This document shows positions 5,389-61,994 of a stretch of 64,000 bases of DNA, piece after piece. The translations under genes were made by a program, and so were the position numbers. Numbering within the stretch: position 1 is the first letter of the stretch; each line of letters starts with the position of its first letter. Source of the DNA: Pelagomonas calceolata (lineage: Eukaryota); assembly GCA_918797485.1 (NCBI GenBank), contig CAKKNE010000002.1:248001-312000 (forward strand), read 5' to 3'. The notes beneath the pieces are model-generated. The model was given only the letters and a program-made list of their open reading frames with translations. It did no database searches and had not been told where the DNA came from.

Positions 5389-6782
5389 TTACCCAGCTCT
5401 CAAACCAGAAGCCAACCAGGCGAGCCACGCGTCGACGGCGTAGTCCGGCACGCCGGGCTGGGCGAAGTGCACGTCGTGCGCGGCGCATTTCTGAGGCGTG
5501 GCGCGCGGATAGTCGCGCGTGGGGGGCGCCAGGTTCTTCCGCCGGAACGCGTTCTTGAGCTGAGAAACGAGCGCGTCTTGGTAGACGCCGTCGACGGATT
5601 CCACGTGCAGCCCCTGGATCTGCTCCGCGCGGAGGAGCGCGGAGGACTTGAGGGCTTCGCTCTTCGACCGGTACGTCAACAGGATGTCCACGTTCTTCAG
5701 GGCTATCCCACAGGGCGCCTTCAGGCCCTGATCGCTTATTTTCCCAAATTGATATTTGTAGCACACTCGCAGACCTGGATCCCCTGGAAATTCGTAGATG
5801 CCGCCGTCCGCGGTGCCTGTGTTGAACGGTGAGTCATCTGGCTCACGGGTTGATTTCCACACAGCGCGGTACAGGTGAGCGGCCGTTGCACGGGCGGTGG
5901 TTGTTTATTGTGGGTCGGAGAGGGGTACCAGTTCGCCACGTCGTGTCGAACAAAGCCGGTGCACACCGCCGGTCGCGTCGCGTTGGGTTCGGATCGCACC
6001 GTATGTATCGGACGCCACTGGGGCTCCTCTTGCGCTGTTTTGATGCGCGTGCGGACCTTCGACGCGCCGCCGTCCAGGTACCGCGCGGCCTTGCAGCCCA
6101 GGGAGATGAAGGGCTGGCCCATGTACGACAAACCAAGCAAGACGAGCGTGAGCTTCCTGCCGGACCGCGGTCGCCTGTTCGTGAGGCGGAGGTAGCTCGC
6201 TGCGGCGAGCGCGGGGTCGCGCGTATCCGGCAAGGAGCACTTGCCCTGGGCGGCGTCTCGCACGGTCCAGTGCCAGGCCCAGACCGGCGGTGCGCCAGCG
6301 GCGCGGCCAACTCCCGCCGTCTTCGGTTCGCAGCCGGGCGCGGTGTGGTACCGCGCGCGCAGGATCCAGCAGTCGTGCGCATACGGTACTACTGCGTCGT
6401 CGCCTCGGTACAAGTACACGCCGTCCTCCCGCAACGTTTTTTTCGTCACCGCGCAGACTTCGCGGCCCGGTCGGAGCAGCGGCGCGACCTCGTCGGCGCC
6501 GGGCGCCGTCTGCTTTGCCCGCAGGAGTCGGGCGACCTCGTTTGCGGCGCGCGCGCCGAGCGTCGAGCCGGCGCGCTCTTCGTTCGCGACGAACAGCACC
6601 GCTTCATCAATGGCTTCCCGGCCCGCGGACGCCTTGCTTAGATTATACGCGTGCTCGATGGCGACGAGCGACGGCCGGCGCTGCCTACGGACGTTCTGTC
6701 CTCCTTTGGTGGACCGCGCACCGCGGGTGTTCCGAGCTGCGGCGGCTGCGACGGCGCACGTGAGGAGGCATAGCATCCTCAT
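5389..6782 (-). CDS. Secreted TBL/PC-esterase-like protein, 2 exons (intron 5817-5872)
   Basis: Signal peptide; LLGLSYMGQ (GDS-like) and DVHFAQPGVPD (resembles TBL DxxHWCLPGVPD). Splicing joins the two ORFs as RPLT-C-TADGG. Confidence 0.65.
5817..5872 (-). mobile_element. Introner intron (short, 56 nt)
   Basis: Element 5817-5864 (CTGTGTGGAAATCAA...CAACACAG on minus); TSD GTACCGCG/GCACCGCG; GT-AG; restores frame. Confidence 0.9.
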
Positions 6783-7003
6783 GCTACCGGCGCCTCACGG
6801 CTCGTTCCCACAGGTCACACGTCCACGGCATCGTCGTGTGCAGCGCTCGGCCCTACTCCAGACCCAGGCGCAGAGCTCGACTTGCTTTGTACACGGCACA
6901 GCGCGGTAGCCACAGCGCGGGGCAGCACCTGGTCGGCAGATGGTCGGCCGAGAATTGGCACCTGAGGTCACGCACGGTCGTGCGCGGGGAGCGCTACGCG
7001 CCG

Positions 7004-8684
7004 ATGCTGGGCCTGCGGCTATGCGCTGTCGTCGCGGTGCTCGCCGTCGTGGCCTCGTCGGCCGAGGGCGCTCGCAGCGCGCTGTGTTTGTCCCAGCGCG
7101 GCGCGTCGGCGCCTTCCGTGCTGGCCCAGGAAGCGCGGTTCAATCCGCCGAGTCGCTGCCGGGGATGGCCGCTCCTGCGGAAGCTCGAACACGGGGGCGA
7201 CGTCGTCGGCGTGGGGCCGCGCGTCACGGCGAATGGCACGGTGACCCTGGACGTAGTCGCGTGCGGCGCCAACGCCACCTGGCACCGGTCCCTGAGCGTC
7301 TTTCTCAGCGTCTACTCGGACCGCGTCCGCGATGCGGTGCTCGCGCGCGCGCCTCGCGGCGCGGGCGCGCTACGGCTGGCGTGGGCGGCAGTGCACAAAT
7401 CAAATTTCGCGGCGCTTCTCCGCCCACGGCTACATCATGACCTCCACGCCATCGACGCGACGCCTGTTCGACGGCGTGGCGGTGCCCGTTCCTCGGTGAC
7501 GCACTGGTTGATTCGCACACAGGTGGGCGGCGCCCGAGGCCGGCGAGTACACCTTCCTCCCGCGGCTGCACTTTTACGGCGACGACTGCGACGGCGCGCC
7601 TCCGGTCTACCTCGGCGGTTCCGAGCCGCGCTGCGCGCCGCGTCAAAAGTGCCGGACGCCGCGGCTCCAGGGCGCCTGCGACAAGCTCGCCATGGTGCCG
7701 CAGGCGGGGACGCGCGTCGCCGTCAATGACGTCCTCGCGCCGACGCGGCGTCCGGGGCGCCAGTGCCGCGACGGAGCGACGGCCGACGGCACGTGGGTCC
7801 GCTTCTCGCGCGACGGCCGCGGCGGGGCGGCGGGGGGGTACAGCGGGTCGCCGTGGTCGACGCTCGTCGAGCGGTCCGCCCACCGGCACGACCGAAAGAT
7901 GGCGCCGTGGCGCTTCTCGCGGCCGGACTGCGACTATCATTTCTTCGCCGCAAGCGAGGGCGCCGCGTGCCTTGACGATGTGTTCGTCGCCTACGTCGGC
8001 GACTCGCTCGTCCGCGGGCTCTACGCGACGACAGTGCGCCTCCTCGGCGGCGCGACCGACGACGACCGGATCAAGGCGGCCCAGGCGGCCACCGCGCAGA
8101 GGACCAGGGGCGGGGCTGGCTCCAATCCCGAGTCCCAGACGACCTTCACCGTCGGCGGAGCGCGGCTCGCCTACGCGAACATGTGGGCCGGATCGGAGCT
8201 CCCGAGCGTCCGGAGGGTCCTGGCCCAGGAGCTCAGGCGGCCGGGGCGGCCCTTCGCCCGCATCGTCGTCGTCGCCAACTGGGGCGCCGAGCACTCGGTC
8301 GCCGCCGCCTGCGACGCCGTCGAGGCCAAATTCGGCGAGCAGGCCCGGGCCGCGCTGCGCGCCGTCAGGCAGGTCGCCGGCGCCGGCCGGCCCCTGTCGC
8401 TCGTGCTCGCCACGCCGACGGCGCTCCTCGCGCGCCGCAACCCGGGCATGTCCACGACCAAGGCCCTCCAGCTCGCGTCCGTCCTCGAGCGCCAGGCGGC
8501 CGACGCCCGCGCGGCGGGCGTCGCGGATGCCAGGGTCCTCGATCTCTCGAACCTCACGCTGGCTCGCTTCGACGACGCGACGCTCGACGGCGTCCACTAC
8601 GGGCAGACCGCCGCAACTATGGGCGCGACCGTCCTCCTCAATATGCTCTGTCGCCGCCCGGAGCGTGAGCAGCAAAATGAATAA
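7004..8684 (+). CDS. Secreted PC-esterase/NXPE-like (GDS...DxxH) protein, 2 exons (intron 7381-7522)
   Basis: MLGLRLCAVV signal peptide; YVGDSLVR and DGVHY motifs. The spliced junction LRLA-WAAPEAGEY runs in frame into ORF 7692-8684. Confidence 0.75.
7381..7522 (+). mobile_element. Introner intron (142 nt)
   Basis: Perfect TSD GTGGGCGG (7381-7388 / 7523-7530); TIRs CAGTGCACAAATCAA / TTGATTCGCACACAG; GT-AG. Confidence 0.93.
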
Positions 8685-9134: not shown

Positions 9135-10332
9135 TCACATCGTCCACGTCACCGGAAAGGCGTGGTCTGGGAGCGCGTTGCCCCCCGACGGGTCGCGGAA
9201 ACGGTGAGCGAGCGTCTCGTAGCCGTTCTCGGCGTCCCGGAATCGGGCGTCGGCGGGCACGAAGTGGATCCCGAGCCCTCGCCGCGGCTGCGTGCGCGAC
9301 CGATTCCTGCCGCTGCCGTGCCAGAGCCGCCCGTTGTGGATGCCGGCGCCGCCGGCGGGCACGTCGAGCCTCTCGACCACCAGCGACGCCTCCGGCGCGG
9401 CGATCCCCTCGCGGCCTGTGTGGAAATCAACCAGTGTGTCGGGTGCACCCGACAATTCTTCACTAAGTCATTTCTCGGCGATGACGCGGCTGTCCTGGCT
9501 CGGTCGAGCGGCGAGGAACCGGCATCGCCACGCCATCGAGCAGGCGTCGCGTCGAACGCGCCGTAAAATTTTGATTTCCACACAGCTCGCGGCGCGCCGC
9601 GTCGTACAGCAGCGCCGTCGGGTCGCGGCTATCGAAGAACTGCTCGGCCGAGCCCACCCGGCCGTCGCCCCACGCGTGCGAACCCTCGACGTACTCCAGC
9701 CTGTGTGGAGCTGACATTTCAGGAGCCCCGCGCGCGTGTCCCCGTGAGCGCGTCTGCTCGACGGCGCGACGGCTGGCGAGGTCTCTCGAAAATATTCCCG
9801 GGATCGTCGAGTTCCACGCGGGCTCCTGCGGCCCCAGCTCCTCGGTCATGGCGTCGAGCGCGATCCAGACGGTCGCGACGGCGGCCGGCACGAAGTCAAA
9901 GTACGGCGAGTCGCGGTGGAAGGTGAGCGCGGCGGCGCCGGGCGGCTTGCCCCACGCCTGGTCGTTCGCGACCCGGGCCCCGCGCCACCCCATGACCTCC
10001 GCCACGGCCCGCCCGAGCGTGGGCGACCGCACGAGCGCGGCGAAGGCGGCGTCCGCCTTCCAGCAGTTGATCACCTGCAGCGTCCGGGACGACGGCCCGC
10101 CGAGGGGCGGCGGCTTCTTGCCAGGCTTCGTCCGCGTTTCCGTTCGAAACGCGGGCACCTTGTCCGGCGCGCCGCCCGGGACGTCGTACTCGCCGCGCAG
10201 CAGCTTCTCGAGCCGGGCGTTGAGCAGGTCGCAGTAGTCGCGACTTATGATGGGCGCGCGCAGCACAACAAAGCCCCGCCGGGCGAACTCGGCGCGGGAG
10301 AGTGGCGGCAGGGCGCGGACCGGGTCCTCCAT
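9135..10332 (-). CDS. Phytanoyl-CoA dioxygenase (PhyH) family 2OG-Fe(II) oxygenase, 3 exons
   Basis: KPPG..TFHRDSPY, TVWIALD, GPLEYVEGSH (after splicing), IHNGRLWHGSGRN..RRGLGIHF. Confidence 0.88.
9416..9593 (-). mobile_element. Introner intron (178 nt, GC-AG)
   Basis: Element 9416-9585 with perfect 15-bp TIR; perfect TSD CTCGCGGC (9408-9415 / 9586-9593); spliced DAAR-REGIAA. Confidence 0.95.
9701..9829 (-). mobile_element. Diverged introner intron (129 nt, GC-AG, in frame and stop-free)
   Basis: Ends CTGTGTGGAGCT / GAGTTCCACGCGG; TSD GCAGGAGC/GCTGGAGT; removal restores the PhyH motif ELGPLEYVEGSH. Confidence 0.85.
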
Positions 10333-13598: not shown

Positions 13599-15678
13599 CT
13601 AGGCGCAGCGGACGGCGGCGCCGGGGTTGAGGCGGAACCCGTGGCGCTCGGCGCGCGCCCACCAGCCGTCGAGCGCGTCGACGTCGATGGGCCCCGTCTC
13701 GTGCGCGCCGAGGTCGTCGCGCGCGTGCACGATCGCGGCGGCGAGACAGGCGGGCACGGTGCCCTGGACGTCGTGGCAGAACGTGAGGTCCGTGTCCTTG
13801 GCGTCGTAGACGAGCGCCGCGCCGTTCACGTAGGCGTACCTGGCCGACGGCCGCGGCACGAGGTGCGGCACCGCGTAGTCGACGACCAGCGCGTCGTCGC
13901 GGACGGCGCGGTGGATCGTGGACTCGAACGCGAGCTTGCCGAGGAGCCAGACGTCGGGCCGCAGCGCGGCGGCGTCGTCGTAGGTGTGCGCGCGCCGCAG
14001 CCGCGCGCCCGCGGCGCCCGCCTGGCGCACGAGGTCGGCGAAGCGGTCGGGCGCCGTCGTCAGGCAGACGACCTCGTGGCCGCGGCGCGCGAGCGCGATG
14101 GCGAGCGCGCGCCCGATCTTGGCCGTGGCGCCCGTGACGCACACCGTGTCCTCGGGCAGCGTCTTCCGCCGCACCGTCTCGAGCACGGCGGCCGCCGTCA
14201 GCGCGTTGCCGTGGACGATCTTCACGGCGTAGCCGCGCGCCTCGCAGCGCGCGCGCACGGCCTCGCCGCCGCCGTTGAGCCACTCGGCCTTGTTCAGCGC
14301 CGCGAGGCCGACGTAGCGGACGCCCGCGCGCTCCGCGGCGTCGACGGCGGCCTCGAGCTTGCGCTGGATCGCGGGCCGCTCGCCCTTGTTGAGGTAGAAG
14401 CGCGCGGCGACGGGCAGGCACCACGTCGCGACCTGCGTGCCGCGGTACTGGTAGCGCTGCATGACCGTCGCCGGCAGGAGCAGCTGCGCGAGGCGCGCCC
14501 AGACGTAGCACAGCGGCCAGAGCAGCGTCGCGACCCAGCCCGTCGCGTGCGTGACCGAGCAGAGGAACGGCGACACGAAGGGCACGTGCGTGACCATCGA
14601 GGGCACGTCGTGGCCGTGCGCGAGGAAGACGACGTCCGTCGGCCGGCGCCGGCGCGCGCGGTCCGTGACCTCGCGGTGGAGCGCCTGCGACGTCGGGTGC
14701 GCCGTGCCGCAGAGGTGGTCCCAGATGGGGCAGAAGAGGCAGTAGTTCCACTTGTACTTGGAGTGGTGCAGCGAGTGGTAGCACGACGTGTAGACGTAGT
14801 ACTTGAGCGGGCCCCACTGGGCCCAGCGCGGGAAGCACTCGAAGTTGCAGTGGCCCGCGCAGTTCATGACGTCGAACCTGCGCGGAAATCAGCCGGTGAG
14901 CGGGGGTAGCCTTCGTGCCCCTCCGCGGCGGCGACGTCGCGTCGACGGCGTGGGGCGCCCGACGTTGGCTTTCCGCGCGGCGTCCGAACCACACGAAGTA
15001 GAGCGGGATCTGGCCCAGGCTGAAGCGGCCGCACCAGGCCGGCACGAGGAACGCGAGCGAGAAGTTCGCGAGGTAGGCGACGCTCTCGTAGAGCGGGTGC
15101 GACGTGCCCGACACGGCCTCGGTGACGACGGACGCGTGGTGGTGGCCGTGCGACCGCCGGTAGGCCCAGTCGCCGTGGAGCCAGACGTGGAACGCGTAGT
15201 AGACGGGCTCGACGCAGGCGTAGTGCGCCGCGAAGAGCGCCGCCACGGACCGCGCGTCGCACGGCCCGACGCGGTCCGGCCGCAGCCACGGCGTCAGCAG
15301 GTCGACGAGCACGAAGGCCAGCGGCGACAGGATGACGGGCCCGTCCCAGTCGAGCTCGCGCTCGAGCTGCTGCGCGGGCGGGTTCTTGCGGTGGATGCGC
15401 CGCGGCTCGGCGAAGGCGTCCCACTTGGAGAGCGCCACGAACGCGTGGTTCACGACGTAGCGGAGGAGCGTCGCCTTGGCCAGGGCGGGCACGAGGTGCG
15501 CGCCGGCGCCCGTCGCCAGCGACAGCAGGTACGTGAACGCGTAGATGGCGTACTTGGGGTCGAGGATCCAGCGCTCGGCCGCGGGCTCGGGCGGCGCGAG
15601 CCCGGCTTTCGCCACGTCCCCGACGAGCGGGCTCTGCAGCTGCCTGAGCGACGGCGGGCGCTGGCCGCCGCGACCCAT
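13599..15678 (-). CDS. CER1/CER3-like protein (fatty-acid hydroxylase His boxes + WAX2 C-terminal domain), 2 exons
   Basis: HVWLH, HGHHH, SGTSHP, GHCNFE, YHSLHH, NYCLFCPIWD, LAALNKAEWLNGGG, VHGNALTAA, VTGATAKIGRA, VPACLA; spliced FVW-FDVMN. Confidence 0.92.
14878..14989 (-). mobile_element. Introner intron (112 nt)
   Basis: Ends CTGCGCGGAAATCA / TGGCTTTCCGCGCGG; TSD GTTCGGACG vs GTTCGACG (1-nt insertion in the intronic copy); GT-AG. Confidence 0.9.
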
Positions 15679-18601: not shown

Positions 18602-21600
18602 TTAGTCCCGAAGCTCATCCACCGCCGACCGGGCCCGCGCGATCGCCTCGTCGAGCGGCTCGGCGGCGGGCATGAGGAGCTGCGGTGACGAGGCGGCGGA
18701 GAAGTCGTCGTCGGCGCGGGACTCGGCCAGCACGAGCGAGTTCTCGACCAGCGCCGCCTTCGCGGCCTCGACGCGCTGCAGGGCCTCGCGCTCGCGCCGC
18801 GCCACGGCCTCCTCGAGCTCGGCCTCTTCGGCCTCCCTCTCCGAGCGGAGCTGCGCGCTCTGCGCCGCGGCGACGGCGCGCGCGCTCTGCGCTTTCTTCC
18901 GGCGCGCCGCGGCGGCCTCGGCGCTCTTCGCGGCGGCCTCGGCGCGATCGCACGCGGCGAGGCGCCGCGCCCGGGCACGCTCGGCCGTGATCGCCTGCGC
19001 GCGCCGGGCCGCGCCTGTGCATAAATCAACCAGTGAGTCGGGTGCGACAACGCCGCGCCATCGAGCTGGCGTCGCGTCGGTGGCGTGGAGGTCATGATTG
19101 AGCCGTGGCGGAGACGCGTCGCGACAGTTTGATTTATGCACTGGGCCGCGCCGTCCTCGGCCTGTTGGCGCGCCAGCGCGGCCTCCTCGGCGCGCGCGGC
19201 CGCCTCCTGGTCGGCCAGGAGCTTCTTCGCGGCCTCCTCCGCGGCCTCGGCGGCCCGCGCCTCGGCGTTCTCGGCGAGGCGCCGGTCGCGGGAGGCGCCG
19301 TGCTCGGCGGCGACTCGGCGGAACTCCGCGCGGGCGATGTCCGTCGCCTGCCGCGGCTCGTAGGCGAGCTTCGGATACGCGGCGACCGAGTCGCCCCGCG
19401 GCAGCGGCATGGGAAACCGATCGTTGGCCACGTTCGCGGCGCCGGCGATGCTGGCGAGGCCGCGCGCCAGCGCCGCCGGGCCCGTCGTCTTCGCGCCGTC
19501 GGGCTCGGCCCGCGCGAGGCGCGCGAGCAGCGGGTCCGCCGCGCACCGCCTCTCGAGCGCCCACAGCTCGGGCCAGACCGCACTGCCGCAGGCCAGGGGC
19601 GACCGGACGAGGCGGACGACGTCGTGGACGCTCTCGGCCGCGAGCATCGGGCCCCGCGCCGCGGTCGCGACGGCGACGGGCGCGAGCAGGAGCCGGTGGG
19701 GCCGGTCGGGCCGCGCCAAAATGTGGTCCCAGAGCCGGAGCCAGTCCTCCTTCCGCAGGCACTCCGACCTGCGCGGGAACCGGAGTTCGGGACGCTGTTC
19801 CCGTGACCGCGTTGCTTCAGACGAAGGCCGCGAAAGTCTTCCGATTTCCGCGCGCGTCGCGACAGGAACGACCGCAGCACCGGCCAGGCCCAGTCCGTCG
19901 GCGTGCAGCCCAGGGCGCCCAGGTGCGCGGCCACCTCGGCGTCGTAGTTCTGGAGGAGCCGCTCGACCGCGTTCAGCGCCGGCAGCGGCGGCTCGGGCCA
20001 GCACGCGAGCCAGCCGCGCGCCCACTTGCCGAGGAGGCATACGACCGTCTCGAAGGTGCACAGCGCGTCGCCCTCGAACGCGAGCGCGAACGGGTAGACG
20101 GCCGCCGGCAGCCAGTCCGCGTCGGCGAGCGCCGGGCACCAGCGCCCGAGCGCGCCGCAGCACTCGACGAGCGCCGTCGCCGCGTTGCTCCGCGGCAGCT
20201 TGGCCGCGCGCCTCCGGCACGCGGCCGCGGCCCGCGCGGCTGCGTCGACCGCCGCGCCCTGCCCGCCGTCGCCGCACCGGAGCGCGTCGAACGCCGCCTG
20301 CCTCTCCGGCAGGTCCAGGAGCGCGCGCCACGCTAGCGAGCGATGCTCGGCGGGAAACTCGCCCTCCTCGCCGAGGACCCGCCGCAGGCGCGCGGGCGTC
20401 AGTGCGTCGGCGTCGCACGGGCGCGCGACCCTGTGCAAGGGCGCGCCGCGGCGCGGCGCCGCCCGCCGCGGGCGCGGCGGCGGCGGGAGCGCGGGCGGGC
20501 CTTTGAAATCCCACGGCGCGGGCGCCGGCGCGGGCGCCGGCTCGGGCGCCGCGGGCTCGGGCGCCGGGAAATACCGCCGCAGCGGCGTCGGACCGACCGG
20601 CTGGCGGCGCCGCGCGACGGCCAGGTCGAGGAGCAGTAGCTCGCCGTCGGCGGTCGCGACCGCGACGGACGCCCCGGCGGCGGCGGCCGCGACGACGACG
20701 GCGCGCGGCGCGACGGCGAGCGTCGCGGCGGCGGCGCTGGTCTGGCTCACGTCCAGGGCGTTGAGCCGGCCGTCCTCGCCGAGCGCGAGCAGGTCGGAGC
20801 CGGCCCGGAGGAGCGCCACGAGCGAGCGCGCGCGCGGCGGCGGCGCGGACAGCCGCTCGAAGGCGCCGCCGGGGGCCCACTCGCAGAGGAGCGGCCCGCC
20901 GGCCACGACCGCGCCCCCGGGGAGCGCCGCGAGGCAACACCAGACGCCCCGCGACGGCGCCTCGCCGTGCTGCCGCGGCGAGAGCTGCGCCGTCGCCTGC
21001 CCGCTAGACGGGTCGACGAGGTGGACGACTCCGTCGCGGTCCAGGACGACGGCGTTCCCGTCGGTCCCGACCGCCGCCGCCGCGACCTCGGCCCCGGCGC
21101 CTTCGAAGGCGCTCTGCCGCAGCCAGTCGCCGTCCAGGGTCCAGAATCGCGCCGCGTCGCGTGCCGCCGTGACGACGAGGCGGTCGCGGGCGTCCAGGGT
21201 CGCGATCGAAGTCCCGGGGGCGTGCGCGGCGGCGACCTCGGAGAGAGTTCCCGTCGCCGCGTCGACGGCGACGAGCCGCGGAGCCCGCGGGTGGCAGACG
21301 GCGCACGCGACTCGGTCGCCGACCCACGCCAGCGCCGTCGCCCGCGCGTCCAGCGTCGCGACGCGCTCGAACCGGTTCCGCGCCGCGTCCACGACGACGA
21401 GCGCGCCGCGCTCGTCGCCCGCGGCCACGCGCGCGCCCGCGTCGACGGCCACGGCCGTGAAGCGCACGCGGGAGTCCGCGGAGGCCGGCCGATTTTGCAA
21501 CACGCACACGATGCCGTCGGCCGTCGGCCGCGGCGCGCGCCCGGGCGGCCACAGGCTGCCGGAGCAGGGCTGCTTGCCGCCCGGGACCGAAGTGGTCGAG

Positions 21601-24575: not shown

Positions 24576-26059
24576 ATGAGTGCCGCGGCCGAGTGGCGCG
24601 CGCTCCTGCAGGAATTCCCGGCGAGGTGCGTCACCTCGGCGGCCTTACGTCGTAGGAAGCGCTGGCGGAAGAAGTGCGCCCGCCTGTGCGCCGCGCAAAA
24701 CGGGCTCCCGCCCGAGGTCCGGCGCGACGTCTGGGCGCGCATGCTGGCGGCCGCGGCCGAGGCGGCGCCGCGCATCACCGACGCCGCGCCGGCGCCGGCG
24801 CCGGCGCCGGCGAACGACGCGGCCGCGCCGCGCATCGTCGGCAGCTCGTCGCGGTCCCTCGTGCCCGCGAACGAGGACTCGCCGCGCTGGGCGCGCGCGC
24901 GCCGGCGGTCGGACGACGGCCGCATCGCCGAGAACATTCCGCGCGAGATCGCCCTCGACGTGCCGCGCACGCTGACCGGCTCCGGCTCCGCCGACGAGGC
25001 GACCGAGGACTGCGGGGCGGGCGCGAAGCGGCTGCGCCGGCTGCTCACGCACTTCGCGCGGACGGCGCCGCCGGACCAGGGCTACTGCCAGGGCCTGAAC
25101 TTCCTCGGCTCGACCCTCTTGCGCGTCTTCGACGCGAACCGCGACCCGCGTGCGACGACCGTCGACGCGCGGGGCGCCCTGGCGTTCCGCGGGCTCGTGG
25201 CGCTCGTGGCGCCGCTCTACGCGCCGGACTTCCGAGGGCTCCGGGAGCTCGTCGCCGTCGCCGGCGCCGTCCTGCCGGCGTACGCGCCGCGCCTCGCGGC
25301 GCTCCTCCGCGACGAGCTGTGTGGGAATCAAGCAGTTAGGTTATCCCGAGGAACCTCCACGCCATCGAGCAGAGGCTGTGACGGGGACAACGTCGCATCG
25401 ACGGCGTGGGGCGCCTGAAGTTTGATTTCCACACAGGCGACGAGGACCTGGACCTGATGCCGATCGTCTCGAGCTGGGTCCTGGCCCTCTTCGCCGCGAC
25501 GCCGATGCCGCCGCAGAACGTCCTCGTCTGCTGGGACCTGCTGCTCCTGGGCACGCCGAGCCGCCGCGAGCTGAGCCTCGAACGCTGCGCGGGCGGCCGG
25601 CCGCGCGACCGCGACACGGGCTCGGGCTCCGACGACGCCGCGGGCGCGCCGGCCCTGTTCGCGCGGCCGCGCGCGGCCGCGCGACGGTTCTTGCGGCTCG
25701 GGAGCATCGAGGACGCCGCGGCCGAGAAGATGGGCGCGTCGGCGAAGCGCCACGTGGTGCTGCTGCGCCTCTGCCTGGTCATGCTGCGCGTCGGCGAGGA
25801 ACGCATCGGCGACGCCGCCGACGGCCTCGACGCGCTCAGCCGCCTCGGCGCGGCCTGGTTCCCCGCGACGCCGCCGGACCTGTGCTCGCGGTTCCTCGCG
25901 TGCGAGATCCGCTCGAAGCCGATCCGCGCCGCCGCCAGGAGGCACCGGCGCGACCGGGCGCGTGAAAAACGCGCGAAGCAGGGTCTGCCTCCGCGCCCCC
26001 CCGGCGCGCTCGCGCGGCTCCGCGCCCTGCTTTCGCCGGACCCGGGCACGACGCTCTGA
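24576..26059 (+). CDS. Rab-GAP TBC-domain protein, 2 exons
   Basis: GLPPEVRRDVW, IALDVPRT, GYCQGLNFL, SSWVLALF, LVCWDLLL; spliced LR-DEDLDL. Confidence 0.85.
25309..25436 (+). mobile_element. Introner intron (128 nt, GC-AG)
   Basis: Perfect TSD GCGACGAG (25309-25316 / 25437-25444); TIR CTGTGTGGGAATCAA / TTGATTTCCACACAG. Confidence 0.95.
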
Positions 26060-27586: not shown

Positions 27587-28827
27587 ATGTACCGCCACGC
27601 GTTCCGAGTCCTCGCCCAGCGCGCGCCGGTCGCGACGGCCGCGGCGGCGACGGCGCTCGTGGTCGCGCCGCCGAGCCGCTGCGACTGGTGGTCGTCGAAG
27701 ACGCCGTCGGCGCCCGCGCCCGCGGCGGTGGCGGCGCCGCCCGTCGTCGAACCCAAGACCGGCGTCGAGTTCCCCGCGGAGCAGGGCGGCCTCAAGCTCG
27801 CGGGCTGCGGCGTGCGCGTCTGTGTGGAAATCAAAATTTTATGGCGCGTCGACCTCCACGTCATCGACGCGACGCCTGCTCGATAGCGTGGCGGTGGTGG
27901 TTCCTCACCGCTCGACGGAGCCAGCACGGCCGCGTCATCGCCGAGAAATGACTTAGTGAAGAATTGTCGGGTGCACCCGACGCACTGTTTGATTTCCACA
28001 CAGGTGCGCGTCAAGTACGGCTTCATCAAGGTGTACGCCGTCGGCGTGTACCTGTGTGGAAATCAAATTCGGGCGCCCCACAGATGTTGTCTCCGTAGCT
28101 GCGTCTGTGCGATGGCGTGGCGATTCCACGCCATCGACGCGACGTTGTCCTTGTGGCTGCGCCGGTTCGATGGCGTGGAGGTCCACGAAGGTCCACGCAA
28201 TATTTCTCAGGATAACCTAGCTCACTGCTTGATTTCCACACAGGCGTGTACGTGTCGCCGCGCGTCGCGCTGGACAAGCGCGCGGCGTCGCCGCTCGCGG
28301 CGCTGCGGACCGCGCGCCGCGACGGCGCCGTCGTCGAGCTGCGCCTCACCATGGCGCGCGACGTCCCCAAGAAGACGTTCGTCGACGCGCTCGCCGAGCA
28401 GATCACGCCGCGCGCCGGGGCGCCCCAGAGCGACACGTTCGCCGCGGCGATCACGGGCGGCCTGCGCGACCCGACGCCCGAGGGCTCGACGACGACGATC
28501 CGGCTCGATCCCGACGGTACGATCCTGTGCGCAAATCAACCAGTGAGTCGGGTGCACTCTTACTCTGCTGCAGCGCGGCCGCGAAGACTGAATCGAGGGG
28601 CGCAAGACCCACACCGCCACGCCGTCGAGCTGGCGTCGCGTCGAGTCGCGCCGCGACAATTTGATGTACGCACAGGTACGATCTCGGTCCTCGACGACAC
28701 GGGCCTCGTCACCGCGCACGTCGTCGTGCCGGCCGTCTGCGACGCGTTCCTCGACATCTACCTCGGCGCCGACGGCATATCGCCGACGACCCTCGAGGCC
28801 GTCAAGGCCGGGCTCGAGAAGTTTTGA
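27587..28827 (+). CDS. Chalcone-isomerase-fold fatty-acid-binding protein, 4 exons
   Basis: VVEPKTGVEFP..LAGCG-VRVKYGFIKVYAVG-VYV..VCDAFLDIYLGADGISP, reconstructed by removing three introners. Confidence 0.9.
27812..28003 (+). mobile_element. Introner intron (192 nt)
   Basis: Perfect TSD GTGCGCGT; perfect TIR CTGTGTGGAAATCAAA / TTTGATTTCCACACAG; GT-AG. Confidence 0.96.
28044..28243 (+). mobile_element. Introner intron (200 nt, GC-AG)
   Basis: Perfect TSD GCGTGTAC (28044-28051 / 28244-28251); perfect 15-bp TIR. Confidence 0.96.
28517..28675 (+). mobile_element. Introner intron (159 nt, in frame and stop-free)
   Basis: Perfect TSD GTACGATC; TIR CTGTGCGCAAATCAA / TTGATGTACGCACAG; spliced PDG-TISVLDD. 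Confidence 0.93.
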
Positions 28828-38268: not shown

Positions 38269-39899
38269 TCACCACCGCATCGACGCCGCGCGATCATCCG
38301 CGAGGGCGGGCCGTCCCACTTCGAGGCCCAGCTGCTGAGTGGCCAGCTTCGGGCGCGGCGGCGGTTGGCGCGCGCCGGCCGATGCCGGCCTTGGGACGCG
38401 CTCGGCCCCGCGAGAGTGTGAAGAAGAGGACGCGGAACGGCCTTCGCCGTCCGAGAACAGGCTCAAATAATCAAAAGACCACGAGGCGCTCTCGTCGACG
38501 GTGCGGAACCGGTCCGCGGGCGTCGGCGCCGCCGGTTTCGCGGCCCTGTCGCGGCGGAAGGCGATCGCCGCGTCGGTCTTGGCGGTGCCGCGGTAGTGCG
38601 GCCGCGGCGGCCGCTTCGGGGGCGGCGCGCCCTCGTTGTCGGCGAGCGCGGCTGCCGCAGCGCGTCGCCGCGCCGACCCCGGCCGCCGGGTGGCGTGATC
38701 CGGCCGCCGCGAGGCGTGCTCCGGCGCGGCCGGGCCCGCGCGCGGCTTGCGCGGCGAGAGCTGGACGGCGGCCTTGACGACCGACACGGCGGACCGGAGG
38801 AGCGACTTCTTCGGAGACGCCGCCGCAGGTCTCGGCTCGCGCGGCGGCGGCACGAGCGCCCTCGGCGGCCCGAGGGGGCAGTGCTCGTAGAGCTTGCGCA
38901 CGGGCAGCTGCGCGGCGCGCGCGAGGAGGCAGTCCGAGAAGCGGAGGCACTCGAAGAGCGGCAGGTACGCGTCGCTCTTCTCCTTGGCGGCCTGCGCGGC
39001 CTGCGCAGCGCGCGCGTTCGTCCAGCCAGCGTCGGCGTCGGCCGCATCGTAGCCTGCGTGGAAATCAACCAGTGAGTCGGTTACGACGCTGCCGTGCTGG
39101 CTCCGTCGAGCGGTGAGGAACCGGCACCGCCACGCTATCGAGCAGGCGTCGCGTCGATGACGTGGAGGTCGACGCCGGCGGTTCAGGACGAACGCGTCGC
39201 GAATTTTGATTTCCACACAGGTCGTAACGGAACGGCGGCGGCGGCCACGCGCGCGAAAAGCCGCCGCTCCGCGCGCGCCGGAGCTCGTCCTCGGCGTGGC
39301 AGACGACGTCCCAGTCGTCCGGGCCGAGCCGCTCGAGCGCGACGTCCTCGGGCCGGCCCGAGCGGCGCCAGGCGTCCTGCTGCGCGCCCGCGCCGCCGGC
39401 CGGCCGCGCCGGGCCGCCGGCGCGCGACCGGTCGAGGCGGTCGCGGCGCGCGGCGCGCGCCTCCTTGCGCGCGGCCTTGGTCGAGAAGGGCCGGAAGCCC
39501 GTCGTGTGGAAGACGTCGGCCACGAGGCGGCCCTTGATGCGCCGGTCGAGCACCGAGTTGCCCATGAGCGACGGCGAGATGTTGACCTCGATGAGCCAGG
39601 GCCGCAGGTCCGCGTCGAGCAGCACGTCGAAGCCGAAGAGCTCGTAGCACGGCCGCCGCGGCGCCGGCGGCGCGCCGGCCGGCCGCGCGGCCCGGCACGC
39701 CTGGACGTTGTGCGGCGTCAGCTCGGCCTCGGCGGCGATGAGCGTCTTGACGACGAGGTCGTGGCAGCGCGCGCGCACCGCCGCCGCGTCGTGGCCGTGC
39801 GCGTCGAGCCAGCGCCACAGCGCCTGCAGCGGCCACTTGAAGGCGTCCTCGGGGTCGGCGCCGCCGGCCGTCGGGTCCGCGGGGCCCGCGGCGGCCTCC

Positions 39900-39935
<36 letters not shown>

Positions 39936-41555: not shown

Positions 41556-44254
41556 TCAGAAGAACCGCCGCGGCTTCGCGTTCTCGGCGCCCGGCGGCGG
41601 CGGCGGCGCGTCGGCCTGCGCCGCGGCGAGGCGCTTCTGCTTGTCGGCGAGGGCCTTGTGCGACGCGAGGGCCTTGGACTTGGCGAGGACCTGGGAGTCC
41701 GTGGCGTTCGCGCGGCGGCCGCCCTTGAGCGCGAAGGCCCGGTCGACGGCCGACTGCGCCGACGCCGACAGCGCGACGCGGGGCCGCGCGGGCGCCGGCC
41801 TGGGCGCGGCGGCGGCCGCGGCGGGCGCGTCCCGGGCGGGCCGCGCGGTGCGCGCGAGCACCGGCCCGGCCGCGTCCGTCCGCGCGCCGCGGATCCGCGC
41901 CGCGGGCGCGGGCGCGGGCGCCGCCGGGTCGGCCTTGGCCGCCGCGGCCGCCGCGCGCTTGGCGTTGCGTTCCTTGGCGGCGAGCTTGCGCCGGAGCTTG
42001 TCGCGGCTGCGGCGGACCTCGGACGCGAAGCCGTCCAGCGCGCCGAAGACGAGCTTGAGCGCGGCCGCCGCGGGGCCGCCCGTGGCGCCGAAGTAGGCCC
42101 GGCACTTCTTCGTCGCCGCGTCGAGGGCGGCGATCTTGGCCTCGAGGCCCGCGACGGCCTTGGCCGCCTCGTCGACGCAGCGGCCGGCCTCGACGACGAA
42201 GCGCACGGTGGCCTGGGCGTCCAGCGCCGCCCGGCCCTTGGCCGTCGCCGGCGCGGCGGGGCTCGCGACCTCGGGCGCCGGCGCCTCGCCGCTCTTCTTC
42301 CGGAGGGCCGCCGCGCGCTTGCGGTCGGCCGACGACAGCGACGCCTCCGCCGCCTTGGCCTCGGCCTGGACCTGGGCCAGCCCGCTCCGGAGCTTGCGCA
42401 GCGCGCCGCGCGTGTGGTCGTCGTCGACGTAGCGCGCCGCCTCGGCGAGCGACGGCAGCGCGTCGACGAAGTCGAGGTCCGCGGCCTGGCCCCGCTCGGC
42501 GAAGATCTCGGCCACGTAGTCCACGAGGTTCGCGCCGCCCTTGCCCCGCGCCGTGGCGAAGGCCCCGAGCGAGCCCAGCGCCACGCCGGCCGCGTCGCCG
42601 CTCGCGAGGCCCGAGTTCAGCGCGTTGCCGGCCTTGAGCAGGTAGCGCAGCACGCGGCCGAGGCCCTCGGACCCGACGAGCGCGGCGACGGCGGCCGCGA
42701 CCTTGTCCGCCGCGCGGCACGCGTCCCACGCCTGCTCGTCGAACTCCGCGCGGAAGCACGCGGCCTCGACGCGCGCCGCGAAGCGCGGCCACCGCAGCGC
42801 CGCCGCGAAGAAGCGCTCGGGCCGCGCGAGGCGCGCGGCGTCGTTCGCCGCGTCGTCGACGTACGACCGCACGAGGGCCTCCTCCTCGGGCGTCGGCAGC
42901 TGCACCTGCAGGCTCCGCAGCTTCGGCCCGTCGAGCCACTCCGAGAGCGAGGCGACGGCCCGGCACAGCGCGTCGTCGTCGCCGCGGTACTGCCGCGAGA
43001 AGTACTCGAGCCCGATGGCCACGTTCGCGGCGCGGCGCGAGTCCTCGAGCAGCGACACCTTCTTGAGCGAGGCCGGCTCCGCGGCGCCGCCGGCGGCGGC
43101 GGCGCGGTCGGCGGCCCGGGCCTTGGCCGGCGGCGGCTTGCTCGCGAAGATCTCCTCGAGCAGCGCGAGGTCGTCGTCGGCCTCGTCCGCCGGCGACGCG
43201 GCACCCCAGACCGTCGCGCCGACGTCGACGGACGCGTCGAGCTTCGTCCAGTGCAGCTGCTTCGTCTTGCGCGGCGCGGGCGTCCGCGCGGGCGCCTTCG
43301 CCGCCGTCGCCGGGGGCGCGGGCGGCGCGGCGGCGCCGCACACGGCCGCGACGTCGGCCTCGGACCGGCCCTCGCGGCGCATGCGGTCGCCCACGGCGCC
43401 CGGCGGCACGCGCATGCGCAGCATCTTGCGGTAGGGCTCGAGCGCCGCGGCGTCGGCCGCCGGCGCCGGCGCCGGGGCGGCCGCGGCGGCCGCGGCGGCC
43501 GCGCCGGGGTCGAGCGTGCTCGCGAGCGCGTCGGCGACGCCGTCGCGCCGCGCGGCGGCCTGCGCGCGCGACTCGACCGGTGAGAGGCGGGGCCGCGAAA
43601 CTGGAGATTTCCGCGCGGGCGCCGCGCCGCGGCCGTGCTGGGCGGCACGCCCATCTTGACCATCTTGCGGTACTTGGCCAGCGGGTCGTCCCCCGCGTCC
43701 GCCGCCGCCGCCGCGGGCGTCTCGAACGCGACGCGGCCGCGGCACTGGCGCGGCGTCACGCCGCGCCGGACGTCGTAGCGCGGCAGCGGCGAGTTCGCGC
43801 CCAGCAGCTTGCGCGCGGCGCGCTCCTGCTCGTCGTCGAAGGCGCGCTCGCCGAGGCCGCTCCGCTTCAGCTTCGCGCGGATCGCCGCGAGCGCCTCGTC
43901 GCGCAGCTCCGGCCGGACGCCCGACGCCGCGAGGCGCTCGCCCACGACGTCCAGCGGCACGTCGTGGATCACGTGCATCGACAGCGCCGCGCCGAGCACC
44001 TTGTCCCGGTTCCGCAGCAGGCGCTCCGCGTCCTCGGGCGTCAGCGTCTCGCGGCGCCGGCGCAGCTCGAAGGACCGCCGGCGCGACCGGTCCAGCGGCG
44101 TCAGGTAGCACGGGGCCGTCGCGTTCGTCGGCGTCGTCACCGCGGCGGGCTGCGCGGCGCCCGCGCGCTTGGCGAGCATGGCGTTCAGGGCGTCCGGCTT
44201 CGGCTTTCCGGCGCGCTGCGCGAGCATGGCTTCTAGGGCCGCGTTTTTGCCCAT
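41556..44254 (-). CDS. Formin (FH2 domain), 2 exons
   Basis: KTKQLHWTKL..TVW, VSLLEDSRRAANVAIGL, LPTPEE, LARPERF, LLKAGNALN; two YRKMxxMxVPP repeats upstream. Confidence 0.9.
43560..43627 (-). mobile_element. Decayed introner intron (about 68 nt, GC-AG; donor could also be 43630 or 43633)
   Basis: 5' CCGCGCGGAAATC TIR remnant; 3' CTCAC..GCGCGCAG; donor 43627 gives the same VPP-to-G spacing as the second repeat copy. Confidence 0.72.
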
Positions 44255-49580: not shown

Positions 49581-50230
49581 GGCGAGTGGCGACTGGACAC
49601 GCAGCGGCCGTGACGAGCCCGCGTCTGCCGGCAAAGACGAGTCGAGCGTGGATTTCGCGGCGCCGCCCGCGTTTAGAGCGATGCGACTGAGCACGTGTGA
49701 GGCGTAGCCCTGCTCTGCGTCCGCTAGCGGGCGAGCTAGTCGAGCTTGTAAGTCCTAGCAGCACTCGAAAAGAGGTTTCGAGGAGGTTTTTGGTGCTCGT
49801 TTCTATGTGAGGCTAACGATATTGATTGATAATTGCGAAATTCAAGCAATACTATAGGATTCTGCAAGCTACAGTCTCGACTGAGCTTCAAAAATCGATG
49901 AGCAGGCGGCTCCCTAGTATCTTACTGTCGCTAGCACCAAGCCCAACGATGGCCACACGAGAGGACAAGCGTGCGTTCACGGGTCCTCGACAGGCTCGTC
50001 GTTTGATTTGCCTCCAGGGCTTTCCCAACTTAGCTGCTTCTTTGGACCCGATGGCGCCCCGTCGCCGTCGAACGCGCGGCGTCTCCCCTAGGCTAGTCCT
50101 AGCACGAAGCCTCGGAAATCAACGTCAAAGATCGGCTTTTCCCATATGTGGAGTTACGGCGGTCCGGAGGCCAAAAAAGCAATAGCAAAAGAGGCAACTG
50201 GCGTGTAAATAAAAACGCAACCGGATAATA

Positions 50231-54809: not shown

Positions 54810-54896
54810 GTGCGCGCGTCCCCTGTGCCTCTGTGTAACAGCCACCAAGGGCTATCCTATATCTATCACAAAGCTTACACACTACTACTAGGCCTT

Positions 54897-56807: not shown

Positions 56808-59000
56808 ATGCAGCAGCTTGCTCTCCTTGTTGCTGCCTCGGCGGCGGCGGCCTTCGCGCCGACGCCAAACCAACGCATAGACACCCGCCTACACTTCAAT
56901 TTCGGCAACTTCGGCGGCAAGAAGGTCGATGAGAAGGAGGCCGTGAAGCTCGCCGAGACGGTCGACGTCGTCGGCGCGCTCCCGACGGAGATGGCGGGCC
57001 TCACGCCGGAGCTCGACGGCTTGCGCAAGGCGAATGCCTTGTTTAATCAGGGGCTTATTAGTATGGACGAGATCGACGAGTACGCAGACACGCTCGCCGC
57101 GGCGAAGCGGAAGGAGGTCGCGGAGAAGGAGCGCGACGCGCGCGAGGCGGCCGAGCGCGAGGCCCGGGCGCGCGAGCGGACGCGCGCGGCCGCCCGCGCG
57201 GCGACGGGCGCCGTCGGCGGCCTCGTGGGCTTCGTGGGCCGCGGCGCGGGAATCAAATCGTCGCGGCGCGGCTCGGTTCCGCCAGCACGGGCGCGAGAAC
57301 GCGTGCCCCCGACTCGCTGATGGCGCGTCCGGCGTGGCGGTGTGGTCTCCCACCGCTCGGCTCCGCCAGCACGGGAGAACGCGTACCTAACTCACCGATT
57401 GATGTGCGCACAGGTGGGCCGGGGCCTCGCGGGCGCGGCGGGCGCGGCGGCGGGCGCGGCGGTCGAGGGCGCCAAGGGCGCCGCGGTCGCGGCCGCGACG
57501 GGCGCCGTCGAGGGCGTCAAGGCCGGGACCATCGCCGTCGGCAAGGGCGTCGTGGACGTGACCATCGTGCGGCCGGCCAAGGCCGTGGGCGACGCCGCGC
57601 TCAACGTCGCGACGGCGCCGGTGCGCGCCGCCGAGGCCGCCGCGCAGAAGGCGGCGGCGGCGCCCGGCGAGGCGGCGGCGCGCCTCCGGGCCGAGGCCGA
57701 CGCCGCGCGCGCGGCCGCGGACGCGGCGGCCGCGAAGGCGAGCGCCGACGCGCAGGAGGCGGCGCGGCTCCGGCGCGAGGAGCTCGAGCGCGAGGCGACG
57801 GCGCGCGTCGACGACGTCAAGGCCCGCGTCGCGGCGGTCCAGGACGCCGTCGCGACCGCGCCGGACCGCGTCCGCGACGCGACGACGACGGCCGGCCGCG
57901 CCGCGGCGACGCTGCTCCGCGGCGCGGCCGCGAACGTCGCGGCCGTCGGCGCCGAGGACGCCGCGGCCGAGGCGCGCGCGGCGACCGTCGACATGCCGGC
58001 GCCGCCGCCGACGGCCGGCGAGTGGCGCGCGGCCTGCGACGCGGCCGTCGTGTCGCACTACGACTTTGGCGTGCGCGCGACGGAGGCCGCGCGGCGCGCG
58101 CAGTTCACGGCGCAGGAGCCCGAGGACATCTTTGAGGGCCTCGCCGAGGACGACATGGGCGCGCGCTTCTCGGCCGTCGTCGTCCAGGCCTCGAAGAAGT
58201 TCGCGGCCGAGTTCCCGCCGCTCGCGCAGCGGACGGTGGCCACGACGCTGCGCGTTCCGCGGCGTCCCCTTGTTTGATACAAAACGCCGTCGCGCGTCGT
58301 TCCGAGGCGGGCCGGGACCCACGGCCCCGCGTCTATTTTAGCGCGACGGAGAGCGACCCCCGGGCCGCGCGCGCCGCGGTCGACCGAGACCGCCGGCCCG
58401 CGCGCCCCGGCACATGACGTAAACCGTCGCAGGTCGAACGCGACGGCGTCGTTCGAGGCGGCGGCGGCGCGCGAGGCCGTCGAGAAGACGGCCGCGGTCG
58501 CCGCGCGCGAGGCGATCCGCAAGAAGCGCGAGGACGACCTCAAGCGCCAGGACTTCAAGCTCGAGGAGACCGCGGCGACGGTCGAGCGCGAGGCGCTGCT
58601 CGCCGCGCGCAAGGTGCTCGCGATCCCCGACGACGAGTACTTCGGCGACGCGACCGCGCTCGCGGACCCCGCCACGGCCCAGGCCGTCGCGGACACGCTC
58701 AAGGCGCGCACGGACGCGCTGCGGGCGGAGCGCGACCGGCGGCTGCCAGCGCCGTCCGTGCGCGCGCCGAAGCGGCCGCCCGTCGCGCCGCTCCGGCCCC
58801 TCGACGACAAGGCGGCGACCGCGCGCACGGACGCGGCCGCCGCCGACGCGCTCGCGCGCGACCGCCTCGCGCGCGCCGCCGAGGCCCTCGTCGTCGACGC
58901 GGCCGTCGGCGACGAGGCGGAGCGCGAGCGCATCGTCGCCGCGCTCCAGGAGAAGCTCCTCTCGACGACGTCGGAGAAGTCCGCGAAACAGCGGGAGTGA
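56808..59000 (+). CDS. Plastid-targeted Ala-rich protein of unknown function, 3 exons (introns 57234-57413 and 58250-58432)
   Basis: MQQLALLVAASAAAA-FAPTP bipartite signal; three same-frame ORFs joined by two introns. Confidence 0.7.
57234..57413 (+). mobile_element. Introner intron (180 nt) with an internal ~30-bp duplication
   Basis: Perfect TSD GTGGGCCG; ends CGGCGCGGGAATCAA / TTGATGTGCGCACAG; gctcgg(t/c)tccgccagcacggg..gagaacgcgt occurs twice. Confidence 0.9.
58250..58432 (+). other. Ordinary GC-AG intron without introner TIR (183 nt)
   Basis: CT|GCGCGT ... CGCAG|G gives TTL-SNATASF and removes the stop at 58275-58277. Confidence 0.6.
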
Positions 59001-59211: not shown

Positions 59212-59275
59212 CTGCGCGCGACGTCGTCTCGGTGACTGCGTTTACACACTGGTTGATTTCCACACTGACCCGCGC
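59212..59275 (-). mobile_element. Orphan introner remnant in apparently intergenic DNA
   Basis: Minus strand reads GCGCGGGT-CAGTGTGGAAATCAACCAGTGTGT...CGCGCGCAG. Confidence 0.6.
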
Positions 59276-59783: not shown

Positions 59784-59848
59784 CTCAGCTTTTGCCGGCT
59801 CTCCCACCAAACCACGCACATCGGTAACAAAGCCTATAGGCAAAGCAT

Positions 59849-61994
59849 ATGCATCGTCCACTGATGCTGCTGGCCATAGCCATAGCTCTGCAGCACGCTA
59901 TCGCATTTGCACCGCCGCCGTATCGACCTGTGCCAGTGCCAACACGTGCGCCACAGGCTGCCAGCAGCCTCCGGCGCCTCAGGGCTGAACCGAGCAGCAG
60001 CAGCAGCGACAAAGATGCCCTGACGGTGGACGACAGCGCTCTGGGCGTCAACGCGACGATCCAAGAACGCCTCGACCTCTTCCGGCGGCTCGCGGTGCCG
60101 TACTTCCAGCAGGCCGAGGGCGCGAAGCTGCAGTTCGGCCTCCTGCTCATCCTCGTGCTCTGCCAGAGCGGCGTCTCGGTGATCTTTAGCTTCGTGGGCC
60201 GCGACTTCTACAGCGCGCTGTCGGCCAAGGACCTGGCCGTCTTCCAGGAGAAGACGGCCAACTACGCGGTGGGCCTCGCGGTCGCGACGCCGCTGACGGT
60301 GCTCTACAAGTTCCAGCGCCAGCGCCTGGCCCTGAGCTGGCGCCAGTGGATGACCAGCGAACTCGCGAAGCAGTACTACCAGGACCGCGCCTACTACCGC
60401 GTCGAGCTCGACCGCGACGCGAACGCCGGCGCGGAAATCTCACGTCGATCGCGTGGAGGTGACGCGGTCCCGCGCAGATCGACAACCCCGACCAGCGCCT
60501 GACCGAGGACGTCGCCGCCTTCACGAAGGTGTCGCTCGACTTCTTCATCACGGTGCTCACGGCGGTCATCGACCTCGCGAGCTTCTCGGGCATCCTCTAC
60601 TCGATCTACCCGAACCTCTTCTACGCCATCTTCGCCTACGCGACCTTCGGCTCGCTCACGACCGTGGCCCTGGGCAAGACGCGTCCCGCGCCGGCGTCCT
60701 TTTTTTCTTCTTCTCTTCTCGCGCGCGCGAACCGAGTCGCGGCCACCGCGCAGTCGTCGGCCAGAACGCGCAGCAGCTGCTCAAGGAGGCGGACCTGCGC
60801 TACAGCCTCGTGCGCCTGCGCGAGAACGCGGAGTCGATCGCGTTCTACGGCGGCGAGGCCCGCGAGGCCGAGGAGGTCGGCGCGCGCCTCGACCGCGCCG
60901 TGGCGAACAAGCGCGAGATCCTGGGCACGCAGCGGAACCTCGAGTTCTTCACGACGGCGTACACGTACCTCGTGCAGATCCTGCCCGTGCTCGTCGTCTC
61001 GCCGCTCTACTTCGCGGGCACGATCGAGCTCGGCGTCGTGACGCAGTCGGCGGCGGCGTGAAAATCAACGGCGCGTCGATGGCGTGGGACACGTTGGGTC
61101 GCGCACAGGTCGGCGGGCGCCTTCAACCACGTCCTCAACGACCTGAGTCTCATCGTGAACCAGTTCGAGGGCCTGTCGTCGTTCTCGGCGGGGCTCGGCC
61201 GCCTCGCGACGTTCGTCGAGCGCATGGAGAGCTACTGCGACGCGAGCGAGTGCGCGACGGACGCGAACGCGACCTTCGTGCTGCGGGACGAGCCGCGCGC
61301 CGCGCCGGCGCGCCGCGTCGAGGCGACCGAGGCGGCGGCCGCGGGCGGCTCCGTGCTCGCGATCGACGGCCTCCGCCTCGAGACGCCCGACGGCAACCGC
61401 GAGCTCTTCGGGGACCTCTCGCTCGAGGTCCGCGGCGGCGACCACCTGCTGGTGACGGGCGCGTCGGGCGCCGGCAAGTCGTCGCTGCTCCGCGCCGTCG
61501 CGGGCCTCTGGGACCGCGGCGAGGGCTCCGTCGTGCGCCCCCCGCGGAACGAGACCGTCTTCCTGCCGCAGCGGCCGTACGCGACGCTCGGCTCGCTGCG
61601 GCAGCAGCTCGTCTACCCGAAGACGGTCGCCGAGGCGGCCGCGCGCGACGAGGACCTGCGCGCCGCGCTCGAGACGTGCCGCCTCGGCCGCCTCGCGGCG
61701 TCGGACCTCGACACGGTGCGCGACTGGGGCGACGAGCTCTCGCTCGGCGAGCAGCAGCGCCTCGCCTTCGCGCGCGTGCTCGTCGCGCGGCCGCGGCTCT
61801 GCGTCCTCGACGAGGCGACGTCGGCGCTCGACCTGGCGAACGAGGCGGCCATGTACGGCGCGCTCGCCGCGGTCCCGGGCCTGACCTACGTCTCCGTGGG
61901 CCACCGGCCGAGCCTCGTCGACTTCCACGCGCGGCGCCTCGACGTCAAGGGCGGCGACCGCTTCGAGGTCCAAGAGCTGGCACGGAGCCGGTAG
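59849..61994 (+). CDS. ABC transporter subfamily D half-transporter, plastid-targeted, 4 exons
   Basis: AIA-FAP presequence; WRQWMT, IDNPDQRLTEDV, EADLRYSLVRLRENAESIAFYGGE, GASGAGKSS, LSLGEQQRLAFAR, LDEATSALD. Confidence 0.95.
60419..60477 (+). mobile_element. Decayed introner intron (59 nt, GC-AG)
   Basis: GC donor exactly 8 nt before the CGGCGCGGAAATC TIR remnant; 3' CCCGCGCAG; spliced DRD-IDNPDQR; TSD no longer recognisable. Confidence 0.78.
60683..60753 (+). other. Ordinary GT-AG intron (71 nt) with pyrimidine tract
   Basis: C|GTCCCG...CCGCGCAG|TC gives LGKT-LVGQNAQQL and joins the two frames. Confidence 0.75.
61046..61108 (+). mobile_element. Short introner intron (63 nt)
   Basis: Perfect TSD GTCGGCGG; ends CGGCGTGAAAATCAA / TTGGGTCGCGCACAG; spliced TQ-SAGAFNHV. 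Confidence 0.9.

Follow-up and report, generated by a model that had tools for sequence, protein, structure and literature searches.

What interrupts the reading frames in this part of the Pelagomonas calceolata genome, and how did the interruptions come to be there? The window analysed here is a stretch of 64,000 nucleotides (contig CAKKNE010000002.1 of assembly GCA_918797485.1, positions 248,001 to 312,000 of the forward strand), and all coordinates below are those of the window. A first-pass annotation, made from the sequence, had proposed that 18 of its 20 introns belong to one family of transposons that turn themselves into spliceosomal introns. Our analysis points the same way: the inserts are very probably non-autonomous cut-and-paste DNA transposons (introners) that would be spliced out exactly, because the CAG that ends the element is likely to be their 3′ splice site, with the GT or GC that starts an 8-base target duplication as the 5′ splice site. 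The inserts carry terminal inverted repeats (TIRs) and 8-bp target-site duplications (TSDs), occur in both orientations, have exact empty sites in environmental DNA, and when cut out give models that equal public proteins.

A family of inserts with transposon-like ends

A mechanical scan for pairs of 15-bp TIRs (summed mismatches no more than 8) flanked by an 8-bp repeat with no more than 2 mismatches identified 12 such pairs in this window of 69% G+C, 9 of them perfect, and none in any of 100 block shuffles. Read on the strand of the host gene, all 12 start with GT or GC, inside the TSD, and end with CAG, inside the TIR. GT and GC together make up 0.20 of the dinucleotides of the window, so that the probability of 12 such starts out of 12 by chance is approximately 0.2^12. 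Six additional decayed inserts were recognised by eye with the help of frame tests, giving a total of 18; their donors were picked as the GT or GC that keeps the frame, and the start is therefore no independent test in these six. A consensus-free scan for TSDs and TIRs was also tried, and was flooded by GC-rich chance pairs, while a direct-repeat search gave only GC-rich families and one tandem array.

The predicted introns range from 56 to 200 nt in length, with 11 GT and 7 GC donors, and all 18 end in CAG. The first-pass annotation had described a TIR and an 8-bp repeat at each insert. The TIR is 15 bp long; the TSD is perfect in nine of the 18, degraded in seven (1–2 mismatches in four, a 1-nt insertion in one, 3–4 mismatches in two), and unrecognisable in two (43560 and 60419). 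Both orientations relative to the gene are found, 8 one way and 3 the other among the 11 inserts with a scorable subterminal end. Eighteen of the 19 family copies or fragments in the window sit in genes; the remaining one is a lone intergenic fragment (59216..59267, no strand assigned), which ends in a CAGTG-type TIR and for which a partner TIR or TSD was not found. Similar introns occur in unrelated genes: nine copies in seven genes have pairwise identities of 58–94%, the similarity being weak for the eight decayed inserts. In run X2, the summed contig depth in the 27820 insert is 296,016, compared to 113–189 on unique contigs, which is no true copy number and hints at something of the order of a thousand copies.

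We numbered the introns in order along the window. Four of the predicted introns with a perfect TSD are as follows: intron 2 (7381..7522, + strand, 142 nt), with a GT donor, and intron 6 (19015..19151, − strand, 137 nt), with a GC donor, both of which carry a CAGTG variant TIR at the donor end; intron 8 (25309..25436, + strand, 128 nt, insert 25317), in a Rab-GAP TBC gene, with a GC donor and the element in reversed orientation; and intron 16 (57234..57413, + strand, 180 nt), with a GT donor and moderately decayed TIRs. Four others have imperfect repeats or none that is recognisable. Predicted intron 1 (5817..5872, − strand, 56 nt, consisting of the element at 5817–5864 plus one TSD copy) is based on the frame test, and has one truncated TIR and a GT donor where the exon copy starts with GC. 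Predicted intron 5 (14878..14989, − strand, 112 nt), in a CER1-like gene, has a GT donor and the TSD with the 1-nt insertion. Predicted introns 7 (19769..19863, − strand, 95 nt, heavily decayed, GT donor, TSD with 4 mismatches) and 15 (43560..43627, − strand, 68 nt, GC donor) are both weak as members of the family; the latter lies in a formin gene, and its removal restores the spacing of a motif that is repeated in the formin.

A profile constructed from the 9 best copies gives strong matches to these copies and to 5817 (E at most 5e-6), and matches 14878, 9701, 60427, and 61054 weakly (E 0.016–0.92). An allele whose TIR has 1 mismatch rescues the membership of 29619, and an exact empty site that of 33918. 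Both 19769 and 43560 are backed by an 11-mer, picked post hoc, which occurs four times, always at element ends, against an expectation of 0.17; with one mismatch allowed it occurs 8 times against 4.67 expected, which is no excess over chance. Judged by these sequence comparisons, 10 inserts are firm members of the family, 6 are weak, and 2 are assigned through their decayed ends. All 18 inserts that had been counted as one family were thus recovered, with membership firm for ten. Beyond them, one non-family intron in the ABC-D transporter gene (60683..60753, + strand, 71 nt, GT-AG) is supported by homologues, and a second, ending at 58432, is probable.

Spliced models and empty sites

Cutting from the first base of the TSD to the terminal AG restored all five of the protein motifs that the first-pass annotation had quoted, among them FVWFDVMN at intron 5. 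In a PhyH-family dioxygenase gene, intron 3 (9416..9593, − strand, 178 nt) has perfect TIRs and TSD and a GC donor, and intron 4 (9701..9829, − strand, 129 nt), which is decayed, has a GC donor and a TSD with 2 mismatches. Intron 4 is stop-free and its length is a multiple of three; its removal restores ELGPLEYVEGSH. With both inserts removed, the model is 296 amino acids long and is exactly CAH0367126.1. The same sequence is found across the two junctions in an MMETSP transcript open reading frame (ORF), from a strain that may not carry the 9416 insert, and a second MMETSP ORF differs from the model at 2 residues. Homologues run uninterrupted through the 9701 junction in 30 of 32 cases and through the 9416 junction in 28 of 32.

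The chalcone-isomerase-like gene contains three inserts, namely intron 9 (27812..28003, + strand, 192 nt, element 27820, GT donor) and intron 10 (28044..28243, + strand, 200 nt, element 28052, GC donor), both with perfect TIRs and TSD, and predicted intron 11 (28517..28675, + strand, 159 nt, element 28525), which has a perfect TSD and a GT donor, is in reversed orientation, and is again stop-free and a multiple of three in length. Cutting all three gives a protein of 229 amino acids, of which 222–224 are identical to 230-residue database proteins. The public protein CAH0367134.1 is exactly what the model yields when 27820 and 28052 are removed at their predicted sites and 28525 stays in frame. 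In the ABC-D transporter gene, removal of intron 17 (60419..60477, + strand, 59 nt, element 60427, GC donor) restores DRDIDNPDQR, and removal of intron 18 (61046..61108, + strand, 63 nt, element 61054, GT donor, TSD perfect) restores TQSAGAFN. Eight of the 120 listed homologues of this protein were inspected: one (P0008) is identical over all three junctions, and the first junction is gap-free in seven.

The comparison with empty sites, which the first-pass annotation had called for, was carried out with seven loci, of which three are close (L001, L002, and L003; metagenomic DNA contigs). Eight of the 18 insert sites are covered by some locus or record. Exact empty sites are present in all three close loci, with exactly one copy of the 8-mer, as expected for transposon-derived introners. 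L001 is a 3237-nt conspecific contig, and is genomic because it still has the 29619 intron and covers two genes together with DNA between genes; it is empty at three of its four sites (27820, 28052, and 28525), each leaving one TSD copy. L002 has a variant copy at 27820 and empty sites at 28052 and 28525; its copy at 29619 is less decayed, with the 1-mismatch TIR mentioned above. L003 comes from a syntenic relative (approximately 14 kb, mostly 85–92% identity) and is empty at all six sites that it covers.

The six sites in L003 are 27820, 28052, 28525, 29619, 33918, and 39054. Predicted intron 12 (29619..29680, − strand, 62 nt), in a SUZ12-like gene, is decayed and has a GT donor where the empty site starts with GC; it is filled in L001, L002, and metagenome run X9. 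Predicted intron 13 (33918..33977, − strand, 60 nt), in a calpain gene, is decayed and stop-free, with a GT donor and a length that is a multiple of three. Its absence from L003 is exact, and ruled out our first choice of donor, which gave a 43-nt intron. Predicted intron 14 (39054..39228, − strand, 175 nt), in a TTL-family gene, has near-perfect TIRs; each TSD copy is one base off the empty site of L003, one of the changes being that of the donor from GC to GT. We note that, with the neighbouring genes as the reference, the SUZ12-like gene itself (window 29886–30730, L003 8923–10630) is inverted in L003.

L003 also has an 85-nt insert of its own (8135–8219; orthologous to window 28040–28047), with a duplicated target that begins 4 nt upstream of the one at 28052. 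Its removal gives a full 229-residue protein, it matches the family profile weakly (E 0.007), and database proteins include alleles in which the exon copy of its TSD is intact. In run X9, contig pieces stop at 25316 and resume at 25437, which are the TSD edges of the 25317 insert, and the leftover length of one contig would, by our reading, fit an absent 28525 and a break at 28243. The 9416 insert is present in some environmental records and absent from others: among 21 scorable proteins reading through 9701 (45 of 261 cluster members are listed, and a record may not be DNA), 8 are filled and 13 empty. At the 28525 site, the environmental protein P0143 has a different read-through sequence right after the TSD and the first bases of the TIR, which may come from a further copy or allele.

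The copies that vary are the freshest, and decayed copies are common to conspecific contigs; we infer that young copies segregate in the wild, and the old ones look fixed. Copies also differ in a way that suggests ageing. The more mismatches in the TIRs, the shorter the insert (rho −0.74, p 0.0004, n 18), and 87 of 115 TIR changes are from A or T to G or C, the consensus being A or T at 9 of 15 positions. Among the five inserts with an imperfect TSD and an exon copy starting with GC, the donor copy is GT in three (5817, 29619, and 39054), and L003 gives GC as the empty state at the last two. These three cases provide a lead towards a GC-to-GT donor change in old copies.

Alternative readings

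Several results weigh against reading the inserts as spliced DNA transposons. Four decayed inserts (19769, 29619, 33918, and 43560) do not match the family profile, and TIR decay shows no significant correlation with the G+C of the inner sequence (rho 0.44, p 0.07). No transposase family was found in 78 ORFs of the window, chosen for a low arginine content out of the 233 that have 130 amino acids or more, in agreement with the first-pass annotation; and the portion of the species' gene table that could be searched, which derives from a repeat-masked genome, contains a single Tc1-like gene and nothing for PF05699, PF10551, or PF00665. An empty site looks the same whether an intron was precisely lost or never inserted. 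RNA mapping of 18900–34200 with loose settings gave no splice-junction read among the 15 of 940 joint rows inspected, all of them repeat noise, and since the junction table is filled by cross-mapping repeat copies it speaks neither for nor against splicing. The predicted removal from mRNA between GT or GC and AG is supported by a transcript-derived protein and not by reads. Finally, the public annotation keeps two stop-free inserts with lengths that are multiples of three as coding, 28525 in CAH0367134.1 and 33918 in CAH0367136.1.

The last point bears on the alternative that survives best, namely that some inserts, mainly the stop-free ones at 9701, 28525, and 33918, frequently or invariably stay in the mRNA and are translated in frame. 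In addition to the two annotated proteins, it is favoured by the orientation of 28525, which puts a CTCAC motif, presumably a branch point, on the wrong strand. On the other hand, 9701 is missing from both MMETSP transcript ORFs, despite being read through in 28 of the environmental records listed, and an insert of this type can therefore be spliced. Gene callers tend to overlook introns that are stop-free and a multiple of three in length. We consider retention unlikely, and 28525 and 33918 are probably mis-annotated as coding; CAH0367136.1 also joins the calpain gene to a downstream cyclophilin.

A second alternative is that the introns are old, the empty alleles being due to precise loss through reverse-transcribed mRNA, with gene conversion keeping the introns alike. 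Such loss would leave an identical junction. The four haplotypes at the chalcone-isomerase-like gene (no insert, the first only, the third only, and all three) require recombination, loss, or parallel gain, and the L002 copy at 27820 is 97% identical to the 9416 copy compared to 92% for the window's own copy at that site, for which an assembly chimera is possible. Against this, L003 is empty at six of six sites while having its own insert at a different position, and the variable copies are the freshest, the decayed ones being common to conspecific contigs. We therefore regard old introns as very improbable. Also very improbable is spread via RNA, through reverse splicing of excised introns and reverse transcription with the flanking repeats as by-products of repair, as proposed for Micromonas and fungal introner-like elements: it can draw on the transposase not found in the 78 ORFs and the searchable gene table, on the 18 of 19 copies within genes, and on the reverse-splicing model discussed by Simmons et al. 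(2015; PMC4540971), but that model was built on insertion in the coding strand only, whereas the present family has a fixed 8-bp TSD, 15-bp TIRs, both orientations, a donor outside the element, and an intergenic fragment.

Proposed origin and known introners

On the transposon reading, a transposase encoded elsewhere in the genome would move the elements in trans, cutting with an 8-bp stagger. A CAG at a 3′ end of both TIRs would provide an acceptor in either orientation, and where the target starts with GT or GC on the coding strand, splicing would remove the element with one TSD copy and restore the old mRNA. Insertions into such targets may survive because splicing restores the mRNA. Fixed copies would then become shorter, richer in G+C at the ends, and devoid of a TSD, and so come to resemble ordinary introns.

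In hAT elements, the TSD is 8 bp long and the ends read YARNG (PMC3014272). The proposal that the present family is hAT-like holds in part. Like non-autonomous hAT elements, it has an 8-bp TSD and short TIRs, and three variant ends read CAGTG, which fits YARNG (7389 and 19143, on the donor side of introns, and 59267, intergenic). However, the consensus end is CTGTG, one base off, and no hAT transposase was found in the 78 ORFs or the searchable gene table. The base by which CTGTG misses YARNG is the base that creates the acceptor AG; a one-step origin from a hAT miniature inverted-repeat transposable element (MITE) is suggested. We put forward, as a tentative and rather doubtful scenario, that a hAT-type MITE was turned into an intron generator by the change of CAGTG to CTGTG (position 2 of the TIR; CTG to CAG at the far end), that it is segregating in the wild, that in a sister lineage it independently inserted into the same few bases, and that its copies mature by shrinking and by a change from GC to GT donors. 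As to transfer by viruses, exact matches of the 21-mer and 19-mer element ends are absent from viral contigs. Prokaryote genomes gave one match (33 nt, L008 2643–2675), at the extreme end of a bacterial genome-bin contig that has no transposase-like ORF, and this is likely to be a chimeric contig end.

The introners of Aureococcus anophagefferens, from a different pelagophyte genus, were reportedly described by Huff, Zilberman and Roy in 2016 as non-autonomous DNA transposons with TIRs and a TSD, which is said to be 8 bp long, a 3′ splice site carried by the element, a co-opted second splice site, and insertion in both orientations. The present family resembles them in its TIRs, TSD, one carried and one co-opted splice site, and both orientations, a likeness of design. 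That work is cited in PMC10228655 and PMC5647799. Gozashti et al. (2022; PMC9860276) list 3099 introner elements (IEs) in A. anophagefferens, where family 4 (their Table 6) has a TSD and TIRs, a mean length of 200 nt, and 1744 copies; they also describe a design with the 3′ site carried by the element, and small families in two Pelagomonas metagenome-assembled genomes, TSD and TIR being unresolved for the one that is tabulated. GC donors make up 7 of 18 here compared to about 3% in the annotated family 4, a difference that annotation bias may explain. Micromonas introners (Simmons et al., 2015; PMC4540971) are similar in that copies may be present or absent, both among cultures and in DNA from the environment, and in that insertion hot spots are possible; they are unlike the present family in being described as confined to the coding strand, in the RNA model proposed for them, and in belonging to a different lineage.

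The class was correctly described as known, and has in fact already been reported in P. calceolata itself. Guerin et al. (2022; PMC9481584; 10.1101/2021.10.25.465678) took introns that were defined by transcripts and overlap repeats, and obtained 956 putative IEs, with GT and GC donors, AG acceptors, conserved TIRs, and an intron length peak near 210 bp. The species and assembly are the same as here, as are donors, acceptors, and TIRs, compared by description and not by TIR sequence. The searchable text of that paper says nothing of polymorphism, decay, TSDs, or empty sites, and TSD data may stand in a figure or tables. A literature search, outside which most subscription papers lie, found nothing on TSDs, polymorphism, or a transposase of Pelagomonas introners.

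Three other features of the window were noted. A fimbrin/plastin-like gene (52444–54810, + strand), with EF hands and calponin-homology domains, has an in-frame TAG at 53913–53915 between calponin-homology domains, with the frame open on both sides, which is a candidate assembly error, nonsense allele, or read-through. A tandem array at 45087–47581 (142-bp unit, 17.7 copies, 95% matches) adjoins a region of lower G+C with a stop-broken Myb-domain ORF (47643–49754). Finally, 10704–13109 (+ strand) is an intronless fusion of the large and small isopropylmalate dehydratase subunits (LeuC-LeuD).

The window thus presents a real and well-supported case of something that has been published before, and that was already known from this species. 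What is added is the exact empty sites, inserts that are present or absent in the ocean DNA of an alga of great abundance, a relative with a second insertion at a distance of 4 nt, and a series of decaying copies. The rate of fixation, selection on GC donors, and insertion hot spots become testable with existing metagenomes. If the one-base origin from a hAT element and the maturation of copies are true, ocean metagenomes would contain a full time series of the birth of introns.

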